Source: Podospora anserina
Lineage: Eukaryota
DNA: 64,000 bases
Assembly (NCBI GenBank): GCA_017654855.1
Contig: CM030337.1
Location: 620,001 to 684,000 of the forward strand
Reading direction: 5' to 3'
Positions 12,346 through 56,954 of the stretch are shown piece by piece. Each line of letters opens with the position of its first letter. The stretch's first letter is position 1. The position numbers were made by a program, and so were the translations under genes. Below the pieces are notes generated by a model that saw only the letters and a program-made list of their open reading frames with translations, had not been told where the DNA came from and did not search any database.

Positions 12346-15210
12346 ATGGCGCCCACTGTCGCCGCTGCTTCGGCAGTGTCGGTCGCGACCAAGGCGAAAC
12401 GCCCCATACCTCCGGGCATACAAACAAACGGCGCCGTGATCACATCACGCTCCTCGCCGTCACCATCCATATCAGCCAAGCGAGCCCCCTCGGCCGTCCG
12501 CCAACCCTCGATTCCCCCAACCACTAACGGCACCACCCCATCATCAGCCCGACCCCCAAACCGGGCACGGCGAGAAGCCTCAGCACAAATACTGGGTAGG
12601 GGCCAGAGGAGTGCAGGCCTTAGATCGGCCAGCCTCGTCCCGGACTCTGCGATATCTCCTACCCTGACGGAACCACCACCATACGGTATGCATGGCGCGC
12701 TGCATGCGCTCGTTGATGTTGCCGTATATGCTAACTTGAACTGCAGTGGTAACTGACGAGTACATTTTGAAAAAATATGCCGGGAACCCGCCCTCCCTCA
12801 TTGTGCATCTATTTCAAACGCATTGGCGATTTGATCAACAAGAGGGCATGTTTCCATACAAATCGCCCATGAAGATCTTCCTCGACCACGTTCGGGAACG
12901 CACTGTCCCCAACGAGCTGCTGGGCTACCTGACCGAGGCGGGGGTTCCTTTCTATGAAGGATGCTTAATTGTGCAGGTACATGATCACAAGACAGCCACC
13001 CAGCAGGTCAAAGACGTTGCTCGGCCGACCTCTGCTCCCTCGAACTCCAAGTCGATGCCGACGCCCTTCTCGATTCACAACTACAACCAGTGTCTCACGC
13101 CATCCTCGTATGTCCCTTACCCAGAAGAGAACCTCAAGGCGAGCGGGGCGGCTGTGCCGGCCAGCGACTCGGACAGCAAACGAAAAACGGCCGAGGAAAA
13201 AGATAAGGAAAACATGCCGGCCCCGAGCGCGCCTATAGATCAGAAGAGCAAAGGACCAGCAAAGCCCAAGATCATCACGGTTGTGCTGCACCCAACACAG
13301 CATAGTTTGCATACAGATCTTATGATTAAGGCCAGCACCCCCCGAGGAGCTTCAGAGTCACGCGCTGATGGAGCTGTTCCTCCGACACCTCACGGAGCTG
13401 TGCCTCCTACCCCTATGGCTGGTAGCATGCCTCCTCCGGCCAAGAAACAGAAACGAGAGAAAATGGAACTGGACTCGAGCAACATCTACGTTGCCGAATC
13501 GCAGATTCTCTTGGCAACAACGGCGCCCTTGGACCTCGAGCCTACAAAGAATGCCGAGGAAACAATAGCCAAGCTCGAGCAGCTCGCGCACCCCGACCAC
13601 TCGCACAAACCACCAGAGCCCAAGACTCGCAAAAGAACCGTGGCGGAGATGGCGGCCGACGAAGCAGCAGCGGCTCAGCAAGAGCGCTACATGCTCATTC
13701 TCGATGAGCGTGCGTCTTCCAAACTGGGCGGTGCTCAAACGGGGGGCAGCGGTGCAGATGGGGATGGCCAAGCGGCAGCTTCCACGTGGGAGCCTAGATT
13801 TGAACGCTTCAAGGTCATTGAGAACATCCAGAAGGAACATGCGGCCAAGAAGGAGGCAGAAAAGCTCAAGCAGGCCGAAAACGAACGCAAGCTCCAGCTG
13901 GCCAAGCAGCAGCAGGAGCAACAAGCTGCTGTTTTGCACGCTCAACAAGCGCAGCAAGCCCAACAGGCGCAACAAGCCGAGGAGAGGAGAAGAAAAGAGC
14001 AGGCGGCAATGCTGCAAAAACAAGAGGCACAGAGGCGAATGCAACAAGCCCAAGCCCAAGCCCAGGCTCAACAAGCGGCTCAAGCAGCTCAGCAGCTGGC
14101 TCAGGCTCAGCAGCAGGCTCAACAACAGGCTCAACAACAGGCTCAACAACAGGCTCAACAACAAGCCAGGGCTCAGCAAGCCCAGGCTCTGGCTCAGCAG
14201 CAAGCTCAACAAGCCCAGGCGCAGCAGGCGGCTCAACAACAGGCGCAGCAGAACCAGGGAATGCAAAATATGGGCACTCCCAATGCTCAGCACAGTCCGA
14301 TGGCCGGCGGCATGGGCAACGGCATGCCCGTCAGCATGGCACCCCAGGCCCAGGCGCGCTTTACCCAAGTCTCACAGCCACAAGCCTCGTCCCCTATCAT
14401 CCGCCAGAATACTCCCCAAGCGGCATCGTCGCCCATGGTTCAAGGTGTTCCCATGCAGCATTCCAACTCCAGCATGGGCCAAGCTGCAAGCCCACCCCGA
14501 CCTTCATCTGTGGTGCAAAACCACCCAATGGCTGCTCCCATGGCTCCCAGCATGTCGGCACGTGGAAGCCAGCAGAGCCATGCTGCCGGTACCCCTAGGA
14601 TGCATTCTGCAACTCCCAATATGGCCCAAGCAACACCAATGACGCGACCCATGGCGGTGCCGACGCCAAGGATGTCCCAAGCAAGCCCACCACCCGGTGT
14701 CTTGACTCCTCAGGCCATGGGACAGGCGATGTTGATGAACGCCCAAGGCATGGCGGGTATGCCAAATGTCAACATCCAGTCCACAGCTCAGCAGATTGCG
14801 GCTCAGCAGCGAATGATGCAACAGCGGCAGCAAATGGGGATGCAAAGCGGGGGTGCCGTGCCTTTGAATCAAATGCAGTTCCAGCAACAACAGGCGATGC
14901 TACAGCGGCAGCTTATGCTTCAGCAACAGCAGCAGCGTGGTCAAATGATGACACAGGGCAACCAGGCTCTCGCAGCCAACTATGCGCAGCAGTTGAACAA
15001 CATGCAGCAACAAGCAGGAATGCAGATGACACCCCAACAGCGCCAGATGCTCATGGCTCAGTCAATGGCGGCAGCCCAACAACAGAACCCTAACATGATG
15101 GCGATGAACGGCATGACGCCACAGCAGGTGGCTCAAATGCAACAAATTCAGTTACAGCAACAGATCCAGCAGCAACAACAATTGCAGGCCCAGCAGAGGG
15201 CCCAGCAACA

Positions 15211-51326: not shown

Positions 51327-51477
51327 GAGGGACATACCCCTGGACAGACACCAGGACCTTGACGCCTAGCCCCCTATCAGCTTATCATCGACGACCAAGC
51401 ATCATCAACAGCCGACTAATCAGCATCAATAGCCAGTATCAGGACCGCACTACCGCGCTGAGAAGTCCCATCTGAGG

Positions 51478-51588
51478 GTAAGCTCATCCAAGCCCTCATC
51501 ACACAAAGCGCTTGCAATCGTTCAATTTGGGGAGCGAAACCTCAGGTCGCCACTATGGACGAAAGATCAAATGCTAACCCTCGGTCAG
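51478..51588 (+). other. Putative 5'-UTR intron of the 51849 gene
   Basis: GG|GTAAGC ... GCTAAC-cctcggtCAG|, 111 nt. Confidence 0.6.
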
Positions 51589-51848: not shown

Positions 51849-54204
51849 ATGGCTTATATGAACTCCGACTCCGAGTCGGAAGCCGGCGGTCACCCCGGCT
51901 TCAGTCACTCCCACGGCGGCGGTGCGCCGCTCTACCCCCCCTCCCCCTCCCCCCAACCCACCAAGCCCTCGCCCATCGGCTCAGAGATGGCCAAGAAGAA
52001 GGCAGCGGAGAAGAAGCTCGCCGAAAAGGTTGAGCATGCCGAGAAGAACGGCAACCCAACCCCCGCCACCAAGGTGTTAACGACACCTTCGTCGACCTTG
52101 GCCGGGGGTTCCTCCAGTCGTGAATCCTTGGTCTACAATGGCAGACCCAAGAAGAGCGCCGCCACCACTGATGCTCCCATCGTCGATCAGTTCGATCGAC
52201 TTTCTTTGGCTCCGCCCCAACAGGTCGTCAAGACCACGAGCCAGATCTTCCGCGGGGCTGCTGCCAAGGTGTCGAAGAATTTCGAGGATGACGAGATCCA
52301 TCATGATCACAAGGTTTGTTTATTTGCTCCCCCTTCAGTTCTGTGGCTTGGCACTAACCTCCTGCTAGGAAATGCGAAAGCAGTGTCGTTTGGTCTTGCG
52401 CCGCATCTGGGGACTGCGTGAAGGCCTGCACATGTTGCAAGATACTGCGGGTATCTCTGACGAGTTTTTGAAGCAACTAGACTACGACATCCAGGGCCTC
52501 ATCAACTCCGTTTCTCAGATGATGGATGAGGGTGACAAGGTCGGCCTGGAGCTTCTTCGACTTATTGCCCTTGCTGAGTCGTGTGGAGATGAAGGCCGCA
52601 AGACTCAAGAGGACCTTCAGCGGTTCAAGAAAGAGCACGAGAGCATCGTCGAGGAGTACAAGTTCGCCAAGGAAGAGCTAAAGCAAGTCTTGACCGACAA
52701 CAGGTTGGAAGTCCAGATGGCCCAGCAGAGGGTCAAGGAGCTGGAGGAGGAGCGCCTTACTCTTGACCAGGTTGTTGCGACCTACAAGAGTAAGAATGCC
52801 AGAGACTCGGAGATGATCCAGTTTCTCCGCGAGAAGCTCGAAAAGCTAGACATGGAGAACGGTTACCTGCGTGAGCAGGTTGAAGGCAAACGCAATCTCT
52901 GGATGCAGGTTCACACCGACGAAAAGGAGCGCGATGCTGCCCGAAACATCATCAAGCAGTCGTCGATGCTTGGAATGGGCCAGTCTCGCCCATTGTCACA
53001 CCATGTCTCCCAAGTGAGCCTCCGTCCGGGCCCCCGGCATGGTCCGCATCATGATCAAGGCCTCCGATCTTTCCAGTCCTACAGCCAACTGCCGTCTGGC
53101 TTGTCTCCCAAGGACTCGCAGCTGATTCGGACTCCGCATGGCGGGACCTCCACGATACCTAACGGACCCCAGTCTTTGCAAAACTCTCATCTCAAGCAGA
53201 TTACATCTGGCAGCACAGCTTCTGCAAACAGAATCCTGAACAGTAAGGCCACTACTGCCGATAACTGGCGTCGCTCCACTCCGCGGGCTTCAATCATCAG
53301 GGCCGATTTATCTGGCAGTCCGTCTGAACGCAATCCTGCTTCACCGTATGCTACCTTCTCGGACCTGGAGAGTCCTGCCGCGTTCAAGCAGACTGATGAA
53401 ACGACATGGGCCAGAGAATTTGAGGATTTCTATAGCCTGATGCTTGGATTCTGCAACTCGCACTTCAAGCGTCTTCAGGTCAATCCCCAGATTGTTCACG
53501 CCAGCATCCAGACCAAGATACCGAGCTTGTACAATTACATGTGCACGGTCATCAACCCCAGGAGGCCGGAGGAAGGCCAAGGCTATGCCTTGTCTCTCTT
53601 GTGCGAGACCACTACGCGCCCCTACTACCTACTTCGCCTCATGCTGCAGCACATTGTCAACCTGATCTTCACCACCGACGGCTGGACTGGATTCAGCAAG
53701 GCTGTTGATGAAGAGATGGAGAGCCTTGGTCAAGTCTTGGAGTGCAGCAAGAAGCTCTCAGAGCGCGATGCAGCCAGCAAACGTTTGGCCGAGCTTGTCG
53801 CCGAAATTGAGGCAAACAAGCAAGGACCAAACTTCAAGAATCGCAAGGTCATCGAGCACAACCAGATTCTGAGGAAGATGATCGCGCCTTTCATCAAGCT
53901 GGCCAAGGCCAACCAAGAGGCCATCTTGCACGACTTGTTTACCGTCACGCAGGCCGCCTGGGAGTTGTCGTCTAAGCTGCTCAAGGCGAAGCGCACGTTC
54001 CACTACGTCTTCAACGACACGGGTGCCAAATATTCAGACGACGTCCATATGGCGGTTGAGACTCTTCTGAAGCCGGGGGATATGGCTCTCCGAAACTACA
54101 GGGTCAAGCTCTCGATCACGCCCATCGTCACGATGCGCAGCGATGAGAATCTTACCATCCGGGCCTCGCAGATTGTGAAGGCCAAAGTTTTGGTCATGCC
54201 CTAG
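51849..54204 (+). CDS. Uncharacterised coiled-coil protein with globular C-terminal domain (766 aa); exons 51849-52313, 52369-54204
   Basis: GTTTGT..ACTAAC..TAG intron joins the two ORFs in phase 0. Heptad-rich segment, S/P linker, then a domain running WAREFEDFY...LHDLF..AWELS...VKLSITPIVTMR..KAKVLVMP. Confidence 0.85.
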
Positions 54205-55859
54205 GTTGATCTCATCACTATTGTTTCCACCATGTGTATCTATCACTTTTGGTTCCAGCAGTTCATGCGCCATTTCGTTCAATCTTTGCACTGGCAGCGC
54301 TTGATCACAGACCATCAACCTCTAATTTCCCTTTTATTTTCGGCATCCCTTCAGCATCTCAGGTGGCTATTTTTCGAGAGCCCAAGGTCTGCCTTGCTCC
54401 CCTTGGGCAATACACTTGGTATTGTCCTTTGCATTGGCGAACTCCAAAACGCCCTGTCCGTTTGGACGAGGCACCAAAAAAAACTCACCACCCAACAAGT
54501 GTGGAAAAAGATGCTTTTCCGCCGACAACATACTCGCAACATTTTTATCCACAAGTTTTCCTTTTTCTCAGCATGCACACCAGCAAGTTCTTGTTCAAGA
54601 AGAGGGTTCGAGGCTCAGCCACAGCATTCCTCACTCAACAAACAGAACGTGCAACTCCTGTGCAACATTTTTTCCCTTGCACCTTGCAAATTCGCAAGAG
54701 AAGGCGATTTCACTGGCGACCAATTTCGATTCCACAAGATGGAGAGAAAGGATCACCACACATTACTCATCCACACATACATCGATCCACTTAAGGGAGG
54801 GTGACGGGAGGGAGTTGGGGTTGGTTTCCTGGCTTTCTTTTCGGGTGATTGGATGGATGGGACAGATGGATAAATGGGGGAGATAGATAAAGATGGATAG
54901 ATGGGTTGGTCTGCGCTTTTATGGGCAGGCGGTAGGCTTTTCATAGCAGTATTTAGTATGTACTTGGTAGTATCTTGTGGTTCCTTGTGATGGGTGAGTG
55001 TGATGTCCGCCTTCTTTGTTATGAGTTGTCGAATGAGTCAGATGAGGCGAGCTTGTCATCAGGTTCAAGATAGGTATCGGGCAGTTGATGTTGCGGTGTT
55101 GAGGTGTTGCAAGTTCACCGCAGAGGCGGCTTATTCTGCCTGAGTGTCAGTATCGGGACCATTTAACCTGGTGTATGTCGATGGCAAAGTGATAAAATGT
55201 GCCCCCAACTGGAATTGGGCGCATCGCCTTCCATTAGCCACCGATATGGGCAAGACATGATAATAACCTACCTAAGAGCCTCAGGACTAGCGGCTAACCC
55301 GGCACACCGGAACCATCAATGACATGCATAGGTGACATCCCTTAAGTTCATCATGAAATACATTTGCCGCATAAGGCCGAATTAACTGCGCCGCAGTTGT
55401 GGTCACGCTTGTGAAGTTGTTAAGGCTTTGGTGCAGGTCACACCCAAATCTTAACACTTATATACAGCCCCTGCCGGCCCCACAAATTGAGGCTGGGGTC
55501 TGCTGCGCCTGTCTACCCCCCTTGGGGTACAGCCTCGGGCCAATGGTAATGTTCAAAGCATCAATAGGCAAGGCATCCAACGAGGGGAAATTCCAAAATG
55601 CTCACACCTGAACCCACTTGTGATCCAGATGCGGGGTTTACTTATAGTTGGTTAGAACTCCATGTATCTATCACAAGAGGGGTTATCCAGCAATTCATCT
55701 GAAGTCTTCACAAAGACCCTGAAACTAACAGCTGACCGCAACTGCCTGCAGAGCAACAGACAGATAAACACCACCTGCTTTCATCATTGAGCAGAAAACA
55801 CCCCACTTGCCAGTCTTCTGCCAGCAATATCCTTTTCAGGTTCAAATTTTGGAGTAGAA

Positions 55860-56954
55860 ATGGCCTCTTTACAACCAGAACCCCGCGGCCGCTCTCGAGC
55901 ATCCTCAGCAGCCTCTTCTATCAGGTCCAACACCAGTGACACCAAAAGAAGCTTCTTCGGCTCTCTCAAAGACATAGTCAAGAGATCCTCCCGCTCACCC
56001 TCACCAGACCCAAACAAGATGTGCAACCCCTTCTTCACCAGCGCGGCGACAGTGACGGCGAACGACATGGCAGCCGGAGCCCCGTTGTCAGAAGCACCAC
56101 CCCCCTACACGGCCCAGCCCCCCCAGCCCAACCCATCAATCTCCATCGACAAACCCACCACCAACCCCCAACACCAGACCCCCTCCCCCTCCCCCTCAGC
56201 AACGTCCATCCTCTCCACCCCGGAAGACCCTTATGCCTTCCTTTCCATGTTCGACACCATCTTTCTGATTGACGACTCAGGCTCAATGTCCTCCCAAAAC
56301 AGGTGGAAAGAAACCAAATCAGCCCTGCAAGCCATCGCACCTATTTGCACCGCCCACGACAGCGACGGGGTAGACGTCTACTTCCTCAACTCCAAAAACC
56401 CCGCGCACCGCTCCACGGGGTTTATAGGGAGGAAAACAGCGCAGTCGATCAACCAGCTGTTCAGCGACGTGCACCCCACAGGATGGACACCCACCGGTTC
56501 AAGAATCAGGAACATTCTCGGTCCGTATGTCAAGAGATATGTCGAGATGGTGAAGAGGGGTGTGGACCCGGATAACACGGGGATTAAGCCGGTGAATGTG
56601 ATTGTGATTACGGACGGGGCGGCGAGCGATGACCCGGAGGGGGTGATTGTCAACCTGGCGAGGAAGCTGGACGAGGTTGAGGCGCCGAGTCACCAGGTCG
56701 GGATACAGTTTTTTCAGGTTGGGGATGATGGGGAGGCGGGGAGGGCGCTGAGGGAGTTGGATGATGGGTTGAGGGGGGTGAGGGATATGGTTGATACTGT
56801 GAGCTTTGATCAGAGGGGCAGCTGGGCGGATGGGGGGGGGAGGGTGTTGAGTGCCGAGGGGATTTTGAAGACGGTGCTGGGGGCGGTGGTGAAGAGGTTG
56901 GATCGGAGGGTTGTGGGGGAGAGGCAGGGGGGGTTGTTGGCGCCTAGGAGTTAG
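55860..56954 (+). CDS. von Willebrand factor type A domain protein
   Basis: MIDAS motif FLIDDSGSM, plus GWTPTG, VIVITDG and GIQFFQVG; PPPY motif in a disordered N-terminus. Confidence 0.88.
   Translation: MASLQPEPRGRSRASSAASSIRSNTSDTKRSFFGSLKDIVKRSSRSPSPDPNKMCNPFFTSAATVTANDMAAGAPLSEAPPPYTAQPPQPNPSISIDKPTTNPQHQTPSPSPSATSILSTPEDPYAFLSMFDTIFLIDDSGSMSSQNRWKETKSALQAIAPICTAHDSDGVDVYFLNSKNPAHRSTGFIGRKTAQSINQLFSDVHPTGWTPTGSRIRNILGPYVKRYVEMVKRGVDPDNTGIKPVNVIVITDGAASDDPEGVIVNLARKLDEVEAPSHQVGIQFFQVGDDGEAGRALRELDDGLRGVRDMVDTVSFDQRGSWADGGGRVLSAEGILKTVLGAVVKRLDRRVVGERQGGLLAPRS

Follow-up and report, generated by a model that had tools for sequence, protein, structure and literature searches.

Downstream of a TAG stop codon in Podospora anserina lies a stretch of 466 nt in which no stop codon occurs in any of the three plus-strand reading frames. 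This raises the question of whether the sequence beyond the stop codon is translated, is constrained as RNA, or is non-coding sequence of odd composition. The DNA analyzed, here called the window, comprises 64,000 nt of contig CM030337.1 (positions 620,001 to 684,000), and coordinates are given relative to its first nucleotide.

Gene structure and transcription of the 3′ region

The TAG terminates a plus-strand gene encoding a 766-aa protein. A 111-nt GT..AG intron in the 5′ UTR (51477-51587) was defined by the joint 51476->51588 in contigs of RNA runs X2 and X8. Coding exon 1 (51849-52313), beginning with the ATG at 51849, is separated from coding exon 2 (52369-54204) by a 55-nt GT..AG intron (52314-52368), for which an X2 contig contained the joint 52311->52367 (cut +2) and the splice model was verified. 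The spliced translation agreed letter for letter with protein P0013, and exon 2 ends in KAKVLVMP followed by TAG, as read from the translation and the ends of the orthologues. The protein was 99% identical to a hypothetical protein of P. pseudocomata. In all three orthologue clusters recovered (Podospora, Triangularia and Apiosordaria) the stop lies at the same position, as judged from annotated proteins, the form in which four other named Podospora species and the two other genera were represented. The orthologues of Triangularia setosa and Apiosordaria backusii share the final eight residues KAKVLVMP. For the 766-aa protein a Pfam search returned no family and a search of solved structures no relative; the Atlas placed it among Ascomycota "hypothetical protein" clusters. 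The nearest named Atlas cluster was MIEAP (score 0.77), a lead only. The locus is presumably Pa_6_4770 under the naming convention, a name absent from the literature searched for it.

Transcription was assessed in assembled contigs of four runs (X2, X5, X7 and X8, from three studies), which are strandless and carry no record of developmental stage. The runs were judged to be RNA by spliced joints or partial cover, the introns being spliced out in X2 and X8 contigs. In all four runs contigs bridged the coding sequence, the stop codon and the tract, with starts at 54015, 54019, 54091 and 53301 and 3′ ends at 55137, 55169, 55207 and 55326; one X2 contig of 2026 nt spanned 53301-55326. Polyadenylation before about 54400, which the first-pass annotation had named as evidence against an extended product, was thus not seen, RNA continuing to 55137-55326. 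A TGTA at 55172 and an ATAAAA at 55192 (55172-55197, plus strand, by motif scan) lie just upstream of the contig end at 55207, and we take them to be a probable poly(A) signal pair. The spliced 766-aa product also has an exact match among Logan proteins; the 3757-nt contig encoding that protein has 1456 nt left over as UTR. By comparison, the median 3′ UTR of P. anserina measures 212-239 nt and the longest 5620 nt (Table 2 of PMC9801653).

The RNA beyond the TAG either is a 3′ UTR about 1 kb long or comes from an overlapping transcript. A separate transcript supplying much of the RNA over 54015-55300, in which case the tract would belong only in minor part to the 3′ UTR of the upstream gene, would be either antisense RNA divergent from the promoter of the downstream gene or internally initiated sense RNA. 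The X5 and X7 contigs, from two studies, start 4 nt apart inside the coding sequence (54015 and 54019), X7 has no upstream cover and depth in X5 steps from 3.2 to 9.1, while cover ends at 55137-55326, about 250-450 nt short of the contigs of the downstream gene (55570-55659). Antisense transcripts are, moreover, reported in P. anserina (PMC9801653). However, the contigs are strandless with one depth figure each, the 3′ bias of poly(A)-selected libraries looks alike, and the single 2026-nt X2 contig runs through the entire region. Minus-strand ORFs were short (at most 94-95 aa) with no Pfam match below E 0.04, and antisense RNA would leave the plus-strand stop deficit unexplained. A separate transcript is considered very unlikely.

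Composition and chance expectation of the stop-free tract

The sequence at 54199-54207 of the window is CCCTAGGTT, with CCC-TAG-G at 54199-54205, and the stop codon (54202-54204, plus strand) stands in the context CCC-TAG-GTT. From 54205 the frame stays open for 199 codons (to 54801) and closes with a TGA at 54802-54804, exactly at the coordinates first reported. The residues of this tail were described as rich in F, H and L, and indeed 25 L, 18 F and 13 H were counted among the 199. Within it, a recount reproduced the 466 nt (54326-54791) free of TAA, TAG and TGA in all three plus-strand frames; the flanking stop triplets are a TAA starting at 54323 and a TAA at 54792, with no stop triplet starting at 54324-54791. 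The tract has 18% G and a TA observed/expected ratio (o/e) of 0.24. Of the 64 triplets only TAA, TAG and TGA were missing from it (2.5, 1.7 and 6.2 expected, respectively, and none observed), so that the tract is not low-complexity sequence. The deficit was confined to one strand: overlapping 466-nt windows of the minus strand contained 15-17 stop triplets.

The naive expectation of about 22 stop triplets at 3/64 per position was borne out (21.8 for 466 nt), as was the remark that composition would lower it, to 14.5 at the window's own rate of 1991 triplets in 64,000 nt. The dinucleotide shuffle that had been proposed as a check gave a mean of 10.35 stop triplets in the tract (sd 2.28, minimum 2), with zero reached in none of 20,000 shuffles. 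When 54205-54804 was shuffled, a gap of at least 466 nt arose in 0 of 20,000 shuffles, the longest gap being 409 nt. Under an exact first-order Markov model the probability of 466 nt without a stop triplet was 1.7e-5 with the composition of the tract itself, 5.4e-6 with that of 54205-54804, 8.5e-9 with that of 54205-55207 and 1.8e-8 with that of the whole window. A caveat to these figures is that the tract boundaries were picked after the fact.

Among stop-free gaps on both strands of the window the tract ranked second, after a 777-nt gap (13819-14596) in Q/A-rich coding sequence of low complexity. Block shuffles of the whole window produced a gap of at least 469 nt anywhere in 15 of 300 trials with 500-nt blocks and in 4 of 300 with 1000-nt blocks. 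For a genome that we take to be about 36 Mb (the largest contig sets hold 31-36 million letters), the number of such gaps expected is about 0.04 with the window-wide probability and about 40 with that of the tract. The tract is thus unusual, yet its origin by chance is not impossible when many windows are scanned.

Composition shifts sharply at 54792. The remaining transcribed 3′ region (54792-55207, plus strand), covered by RNA contigs in 4/4 runs, has 35% G, a TA o/e of 0.83 and 24 stop triplets, and TA o/e reaches 1.03 in 55208-55569.

The tract is probably non-coding 3′ UTR sequence of odd composition, poor in TA and in G. It would lie in the first 600 nt of a 3′ UTR that, at about 1 kb, is unusually long and belongs to a conserved ascomycete gene in Podospora, and the stop deficit would result from the odd composition of the transcribed strand (very few TA, little G) together with chance and the after-the-fact choice of an extreme stretch. 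Translation would be needed at no step, and the composition, we infer, has no translational purpose. Several observations count against this explanation. Zero stops were improbable given the dinucleotides (0/20,000; Markov 1.7e-5 to 1.8e-8), and the absence of TGA (0 against 6.2 expected) is unexplained by TA depletion. The strand specificity of the deficit, the sharp change at 54792, a GC period with p 0.006 and the return to frame 1 in both other lineages, described below, also stand against it. If the explanation is true, the locus is a long 3′ UTR of peculiar composition, of value chiefly as a calibration case: nulls based on 3/64 or even on dinucleotides overstate the significance of stop-free tracts when boundaries are set post hoc and many windows are scanned.

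The same composition could arise from constraint on the RNA. Poly(A) hexamers of the AAUAAA type nearly all contain a stop triplet. A tract kept free of UA-rich words, including such hexamers, would, under fungal poly(A) signal rules, defer cleavage and polyadenylation to a distal site near 55200 and yield a long regulatory 3′ UTR, the stop depletion being a side effect. Consistent with this idea, TA o/e was 0.24 in the tract compared with 0.83 and 1.03 downstream, depletion was confined to the plus strand, and 54236-54868 contained neither TGTA nor an AATAAA-like hexamer of the set scanned. The first such motifs occur at 54869, 54886 and 54954-54968, followed by the TGTA at 55172 and the ATAAAA at 55192, and contigs end at 55137-55326 in 4/4 runs. 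However, constraint of this kind leaves the total absence of TGA unexplained, the conservation data bearing on it come from lineages about 2% diverged, and it may merely restate that a transcript runs until a signal is met. It is judged distinctly unlikely.

A structured RNA element, one of the possibilities first raised for the tract, was not borne out: no Rfam match fell below E 0.58 and fold z-scores ranged from +0.41 to -1.89. The sole Rfam match in 53900-55700 was adapt33_3 (17.8 bits against a gathering threshold of 70, E 0.58), outside the tract. The inverted repeats, of 14-15 nt and 79-87% complementarity, were short and lay scattered.

Coding signals in the tail

Coding signals in the tail were faint. 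Codon usage was trained independently on 23 ORFs (11,054 codons). On this basis the tail had a frame-1 contrast of 0.10 bit/codon, a value matched by 3 of 28 non-coding control segments, compared with 0.31 for real coding sequence; shuffling gave P = 0.044 for frame-1 codon usage and P = 0.086 for the best frame. A 3-base period of GC was in phase with the coding sequence (0.48/0.37/0.53, p 0.006), and none of 14 non-coding controls reached a p this low (minimum 0.043). The full 4x3 nucleotide periodicity gave p 0.059, and the same pattern correlation was found in 8 of 28 control comparisons.

A Pfam search with the tail in three frames returned no family. Atlas recognition of the tail was 954, compared with about 2300 for known families, with no usable match, and no relatives of the tail were found beyond the Podospora species complex. 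These results agree with the first-pass view that the tail does not look like a folded domain. For a fused or longer protein across the stop codon there were 223 word-sharing candidates, none of which scored, which is weak evidence. An exhaustive HMMER search with the tail recovered its own cluster and two further matches, P0020 and P0021; these are tandem-repeat translations that match a GxQFRF-like word repeatedly and were rejected as artefacts. A gene on the opposite strand was likewise rejected, the best Pfam match of the minus-strand ORFs (E 0.04) failing the cut-off.

Recognized readthrough contexts include UGA-CUA and UAG-CAA, and an SKL-like tripeptide serves for peroxisomal targeting. 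The UAG-GUU-GAU context of this stop codon and the ...DPLKGG end of the tail match neither those contexts nor such a tripeptide.

Divergence of the tail between sister lineages

Relatives about 2% diverged were compared through protein-level proxies, namely tail ORFs called on Logan contigs. Owing to three 1-nt indels (TT/TTT, A8/A7 and T6/T5), two lineages are read in frame 2 over stretches of about 22 or about 85 codons. At site A (54416-54417), TT in this genome and TTT, as reconstructed, in both other lineages, the frame changes from 1 to 2 (P0005, P0006 and P0017). Frame 1 is regained at site B (54476-54483), A8 here and by reconstruction A7, in the P0005 lineage, and at site C (54668-54673) in the P. 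comata-like lineage, which lacks one base of the T6 run; all three sites are given on the plus strand. The mismatches left after the indels were modelled numbered 8, 6, 9, 0 and 1, all of them single-nucleotide changes. The reading frame of the tail is therefore not conserved between relatives, being switched between frames 1 and 2. In both other lineages a second, different 1-nt indel restores frame 1, for which a rough estimate of chance is 0.1-0.25.

Residues of the tail changed 3-5 times faster than those of the 766-aa protein. One lineage had 8 of 190 tail residues changed against 5 of 610 in the coding sequence (Fisher 0.004), and the P. comata-like lineage 9 of 190 against 9 of 610 (Fisher 0.02), values taken from proteins on the same contigs, in which synonymous changes are invisible. 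Judged from these translations, the tail residues appear to evolve at near-neutral speed, with no sign of purifying selection. Together with the frame-switching indels and the weak codon-usage signal, this divergence is indirect evidence against a tail whose sequence is conserved. The visible sister lineages also keep the tail open; this carries no weight, because a divergence of only about 2% suffices for open frames to be shared. Similarly, none of about 15 inferred substitutions in the tract creates a stop triplet in any frame, and since 12.8% of possible substitutions would do so, the probability of seeing none is about 0.24 and the test is without power.

These results bear on whether the tail contains an independent small protein gene of 179-190 aa starting from ATG 54232 or 54265. 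Gene callers do call such ORFs on Logan contigs of three lineages, and frame 1 has a slight codon-usage edge (shuffle P 0.044). Set against this are the frame switches of 22-85 codons between lineages, the near-neutral residue change, the lack of a Pfam family or of relatives outside the complex, the Atlas value of 954 and a composition typical of translated T/C-rich non-coding DNA, and such a gene is extremely improbable.

Stop-loss editing at the UAG

Sordariomycetes are known to carry out stop-loss A-to-I editing, and extensions produced by it act as degradation signals, as for FgDbf2 in Fusarium graminearum, with longer extensions in stop-loss genes than in controls (PMC13123824). Sexual-stage editing, or low-level readthrough, at UAG 54202-54204 would add about 200 codons here, and the hydrophobic, aromatic-rich tail would destabilize or inactivate the protein, openness and length being selected and not sequence. 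In P. anserina, ADAT genes are differentially expressed during sexual development (bioRxiv 10.1101/2024.12.09.627484). The species is a tractable laboratory model, and developmental RNA-seq for it is public. The tail is indeed more hydrophobic than the protein (Kyte-Doolittle -0.16 compared with -0.62), and F, L, H, W, C and I make up 40% of its residues compared with 22%. The open extension of 199 codons, the faint frame-1 periodicity and the restoration of frame 1 in both other lineages would also fit. Nevertheless, editing would account for one open frame and not for three, the tail evolves near-neutrally with frame switches, and whether stop-loss editing is adaptive in general is under dispute (PMC13684035).

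Every UAG stop has U at -1 and G at +1, so that their presence here is uninformative. Position +3 is U (UAGGU), where A or G is favoured, as a preference only (PMC11156358). An edited A is expected in the loop of a stable hairpin of the +/-30-nt fold (PMC4817773), and A54203 does lie in a predicted hairpin loop of that fold: a CUA triloop contains it in the minimum free energy structures of the 31-, 61- and 81-nt folds, though not in that of the 51-nt fold. The hairpin was not more stable than shuffles, however. Of two folds around the stop codon, one had -5.8 kcal/mol (z -0.71), equalled or bettered by 51 of 200 shuffles, and the other -10.1 kcal/mol (z +0.27), equalled or bettered by 113 of 200. 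Position 54203 was A only in 4/4 runs, which proves nothing, as contigs drop minority variants. Taken together, editing or readthrough at this stop codon is unlikely. If it does occur, the recently shown stop-loss degron mechanism would gain a case in Podospora whose extension is very long, and the new question would arise of why three frames are open.

One reading that addresses all three frames is a selected open stretch that works irrespective of frame. After stage-specific UAG-to-UGG editing or rare readthrough, ribosomes would continue into the 3′ UTR for about 195-200 codons, in any frame set by the slippage-prone A8 and T6 runs or by fixed 1-nt indels. The outcome would be a hydrophobic degron, or ribosomes would clear decay factors from the first 60% of a 1-kb 3′ UTR otherwise prone to nonsense-mediated decay. 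What would be selected is openness in every frame, together with the return to frame 1, and not the sequence of the peptide. Such selection is highly improbable.

Comparison with known systems

In FgDBF2 and other F. graminearum genes subject to stop-loss editing (PMC13123824), as in Podospora, the host is a Sordariomycete, the native stop is TAG (U at -1), a hairpin loop is predicted to hold the A, and the extension is poorly conserved and without a recognizable domain. Long extensions are reported there as typical of stop-loss genes, comparable with the 199 codons found here. By contrast, the Podospora site is known from sequence and from contigs showing A alone, and its hairpin is not more stable than shuffles. 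The F. graminearum extensions are described as "short", disordered and coil-rich, whereas the Podospora tail is about 200 codons long, hydrophobic and aromatic. Three open frames, present in Podospora, are neither needed nor, in the available part of that report, described for FgDBF2-type editing.

The Podospora region resembles an ordinary long P. anserina 3′ UTR (PMC9801653) in that RNA contigs join it to the coding sequence and that it has no coding family. Further points of likeness are the indels and fast change between sister species and the distal TGTA/ATAAAA before the contig ends. It differs in length, about 1 kb against the median given above, and in that its first 600 nt are TA-poor with a lack of stops unmatched by dinucleotide shuffles (0/20,000).

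Restorative editing, as in PUK1 (PMC4817773), also involves a UAG inside a potential long ORF of a Sordariomycete. PUK1-type genes, however, have a conserved kinase domain after the UAG, whereas the Podospora tail has no family and switches frame. Again unlike PUK1, orthologues of the Podospora gene in other genera are annotated with the same last residue.

In animals, translated 3′ UTR sequence destabilizes proteins, a phenomenon termed readthrough mitigation. Such destabilization is common to 3′ UTRs in general rather than the work of a selected element, and predicts no stop-free tract; as in that system, a hydrophobic peptide encoded by a 3′ UTR should reduce the amount of any readthrough product.

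A stop-free tract behind the focal stop codon

The focal gene was read on the + strand from ATG 51849 to TAG 54202-54204 as two exons encoding 766 aa, separated by a 55-nt intron (52314-52368), and the spliced translation was identical to the protein on an RNA-derived contig. The stop codon lies in CCCTAGGTT (54199-54207), and the frame behind it (the tail, 54205-54804) remained open for 199 codons before TGA 54802-54804. Consecutive + strand stop triplets start at 54323 and 54792, leaving a tract of 466 nt (54326-54791) with no TAA, TAG or TGA in any frame. The first-pass annotation had reported the TAG, the 199-codon frame and the 466-nt stop-free tract, and was exact on re-reading of the sequence. 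It had also expected about 22 stop triplets naively and somewhat fewer given composition. This was borne out: the 3/64 rate predicts 21.8 per 466 nt, the density across the window (1991 stop triplets per 64,000 nt) predicts 14.5, and dinucleotide-preserving shuffles of the tract contained 10.35 ± 2.28, with a minimum of 2. None of 20,000 shuffles was free of stops, placing the absence beyond a simple null, as the shuffle test had been proposed to determine. The boundaries of the tract were picked after the fact and significance figures are to be taken accordingly, including those of an exact first-order Markov model, in which the probability of 466 stop-free nucleotides was 1.7e-5 when trained on the tract, 5.4e-6 on 54205-54804, 8.5e-9 on 54205-55207 and, with the entire window as training set, 1.8e-8.

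The tract is not of low complexity, and the triplets missing from it are exactly three of the 64, the stops (expectations 2.5, 1.7 and 6.2). The opposite strand carries 15-17 stop triplets in overlapping 466-nt windows, and the deficit is therefore strand-specific. Only one longer gap without a + strand stop triplet occurs in the window (777 nt, 13819-14596), and it is explained by low-complexity coding sequence in which CAG/CAA/GCN codons abound (Q/A repeats). In a genome that we take to be ~36 Mb, between ~0.04 (window-wide probability) and ~40 (the tract's own probability) such gaps would be expected; the tract is unusual, yet a large enough scan could turn up such a tract by chance.

We favor, with moderate confidence, the reading that the tract is non-coding and forms the beginning of a long 3′ UTR, that its composition is odd and strand-specific, and that the openness of all frames is a by-product of this composition. 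The observed/expected ratio of TA was 0.24 in the tract versus 0.83-1.03 just downstream, and G made up 18%. Part of the stop deficit may follow from a lack of UA-rich poly(A)-type words, since most such words contain a stop triplet; this does not account for the missing TGA. Immediately behind the tract, at 54792-55050, the sequence flips abruptly from C-rich to G-rich (GC skew from about -0.25 to about +0.39) and carries short repeats of the GATGG/GGATGG type. Fold tests of the C-rich and G-rich sides as a pair gave a z-score of only -1.9.

A structured RNA element, which had been offered as one explanation, was not supported: Rfam contained no family matching the tract (the sole match, E 0.58, was located elsewhere), fold z-scores ranged from +0.41 to -1.89, and inverted repeats were short and scattered only. 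No plausible candidate for an antisense gene over the tract was identified. Pfam searches of the three frames of the tail found no family, Atlas (tail recognition 954) returned no usable hit, and no longer protein fusing the focal coding sequence (CDS) with the tail was found. An exhaustive search with the tail ORF recovered its own cluster only, apart from two matches rejected as tandem-repeat artefacts.

RNA coverage of the tract

The four sequencing runs examined as assembled contigs (X2, X5, X7 and X8, from three studies) were all RNA or RNA-like, and contigs of X2 and X8 span GT..AG introns as joints. In every run, contigs extended from inside the CDS over the stop codon and the entire tract. 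The contigs, which do not give the strand, covered 53301-55326 in X2 (one contig), 54015-55207 in X5, 54019-55169 in X7 (three overlapping contigs) and 54091-55137 in X8 (three contigs with small holes). Polyadenylation before ~54400, which the first-pass annotation had counted against its proposals, was not seen, as contigs reached 55137-55326. Coverage then broke off, restarting at 55570-55659 with the downstream gene. TGTA at 55172 and ATAAAA at 55192, presumably a poly(A) signal, lie upstream of the X5 contig end at 55207. From contig extent and these motifs, the 3′ UTR of the focal gene would therefore be ~1 kb as judged from strandless contigs, with a separate overlapping transcript hinted as an alternative. 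The median P. anserina 3′ UTR is given as 212-239 nt in Table 2 of PMC9801653.

Contig starts from two studies fell 4 nt apart, at 54015 (X5) and 54019 (X7), 185 nt 5′ of the stop codon. At 54015 the X5 depth stepped from 3.2 to 9.1, and X7 had no coverage upstream of 54019. Positions 54015-54033 may mark where an additional, overlapping transcript of either strand begins or ends.

Comparison of the tail between lineages

Tail ORFs were called on contigs of other lineages, one designated P0005 and two P. comata-like (P0006 and P0017). Tails and CDS fragments were matched up by the length of their contigs. The CDS fragment paired with P0005 differed from that of the window at 5 of 610 residues, and the P. 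comata-like fragments at 9 of 610 (P0017) and 10 of 590 (P0006). Tail identities were low (86% and 57%), reflecting frame switches rather than divergence. In place of the window's TT (54416-17), both other lineages carry TTT, shifting the reading to the window's frame 2; P0005 returned to frame 1 at an A8 run (54476-83) with one A fewer, and the P. comata-like sequences at a T6 run (54668-73) with one base fewer. After these three 1-nt indels were modelled, 8, 6, 9, 0 and 1 mismatches remained. One base change sufficed to account for each, and no stop triplet arose from them in any frame. Thus 22 to 85 codons were readable in another frame with openness kept, something that requires every frame to be open. 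Such switches are hard to reconcile with a peptide of meaningful sequence.

Residue changes were more frequent in the tail than in the CDS in both the P0005 lineage (8/190 vs 5/610, Fisher 0.004) and the P. comata-like lineage (9/190 vs 9/610, Fisher 0.02), and the tail values are about the neutral expectation at roughly 2% divergence. Of possible substitutions in the tract, 12.8% would make a stop; none of ~15 events did (P ~0.24), so these relatives are too close to show selection against stops.

Frame-1 periodicity of the tail was faint and not robust. GC by codon position was 0.48/0.37/0.53 (p 0.006), in phase with the CDS (0.55/0.38/0.69), and no p as low was found in 14 non-coding control segments (minimum 0.043). 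The full 4x3 nucleotide test gave p 0.059, and the correlation of the tail and CDS patterns (0.73) was matched by 8 of 28 control comparisons. Scored with codon usage from a training set of 23 other ORFs, frame 1 of the tail had an advantage of 0.10 bit/codon versus 0.31 in the CDS (shuffle P 0.044 to 0.086; equalled by 3 of 28 non-coding controls). The return of both other lineages to frame 1 through different second indels was not significant (estimated chance roughly 0.1-0.25).

Orthologues and stop-loss editing

The focal protein was 99% identical to a Podospora pseudocomata hypothetical protein and fell into a cluster with proteins from four further named members of the P. anserina complex. 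No Pfam family or solved relative of the protein was found, and its look-alike clusters were from Ascomycota and annotated only as "hypothetical protein". In their annotation, orthologues of Triangularia setosa (78% identity) and Apiosordaria backusii (72%) both end, like the focal protein, in KAKVLVMP. This indicates a conserved stop position, not an absence of editing, because annotation pipelines halt at any TAG. The P. bellae-mahoneyi orthologue (P0009) is annotated from an upstream ATG with an N-terminus 19 residues longer (785 vs 766 aa); the annotated start in the other four named species is MAYMNSD.

Sexual-stage A-to-I editing of TAG 54202-54204, with the tail acting as a degron, would be an already known kind of mechanism; stop-loss editing of this type is firmly known from Sordariomycetes. 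UAG-to-UGG stop-loss is reported in 323 F. graminearum genes, with almost 9% of UAG/UAA triplets edited and 62% of edited sites in hairpin loops (PMC4817773). A 2026 study describes the FgDBF2 extension and six others as destabilising tails, and stop-loss extensions as longer than those of controls (PMC13123824); a reply contests the general adaptiveness of such editing (PMC13684035). In P. anserina, regulation of ADAT genes during sexual development is reported (bioRxiv 10.1101/2024.12.09.627484). The data here neither supported nor refuted this mechanism at the focal stop, and we consider it unlikely, an estimate set by the F. graminearum prior near 8-9% for any one TAG stop and raised somewhat by the length of the open extension and by the faint frame-1 signals. 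Editing sites are described as favoring U at -1 and a purine (A/G) at both +1 and +3 (PMC11156358); the focal stop trivially has U at -1 and G at +1, but U at +3. A54203 was placed in a CUA triloop in 3 of 4 predicted folds, but the hairpin was no more stable than shuffles, and editing would account for one open frame, not three. None of the four runs listed G at 54203, which is uninformative on editing because assembled contigs lose minority variants and the runs may come from other stages.

The downstream gene

In the protein of the downstream gene (55860-56954, + strand), a proline-rich N-terminus precedes a von Willebrand factor A domain (Pfam VWA, E 2.6e-5). Contigs of this gene had depths of 74.3-158.6 versus ≤10 on the focal gene, although contig depth cannot rank genes. 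On this gene, 255 letters of an X8 contig upstream of 55659 had no match to the window and could derive from an upstream leader exon located elsewhere and spliced on, or from contig chimerism. At 56176 all four RNA runs (three studies) had G at full contig depth in place of the window's A, turning CAG (Q) into CGG (R). The base before it is C rather than U, and a difference between strains seems likelier here than editing.
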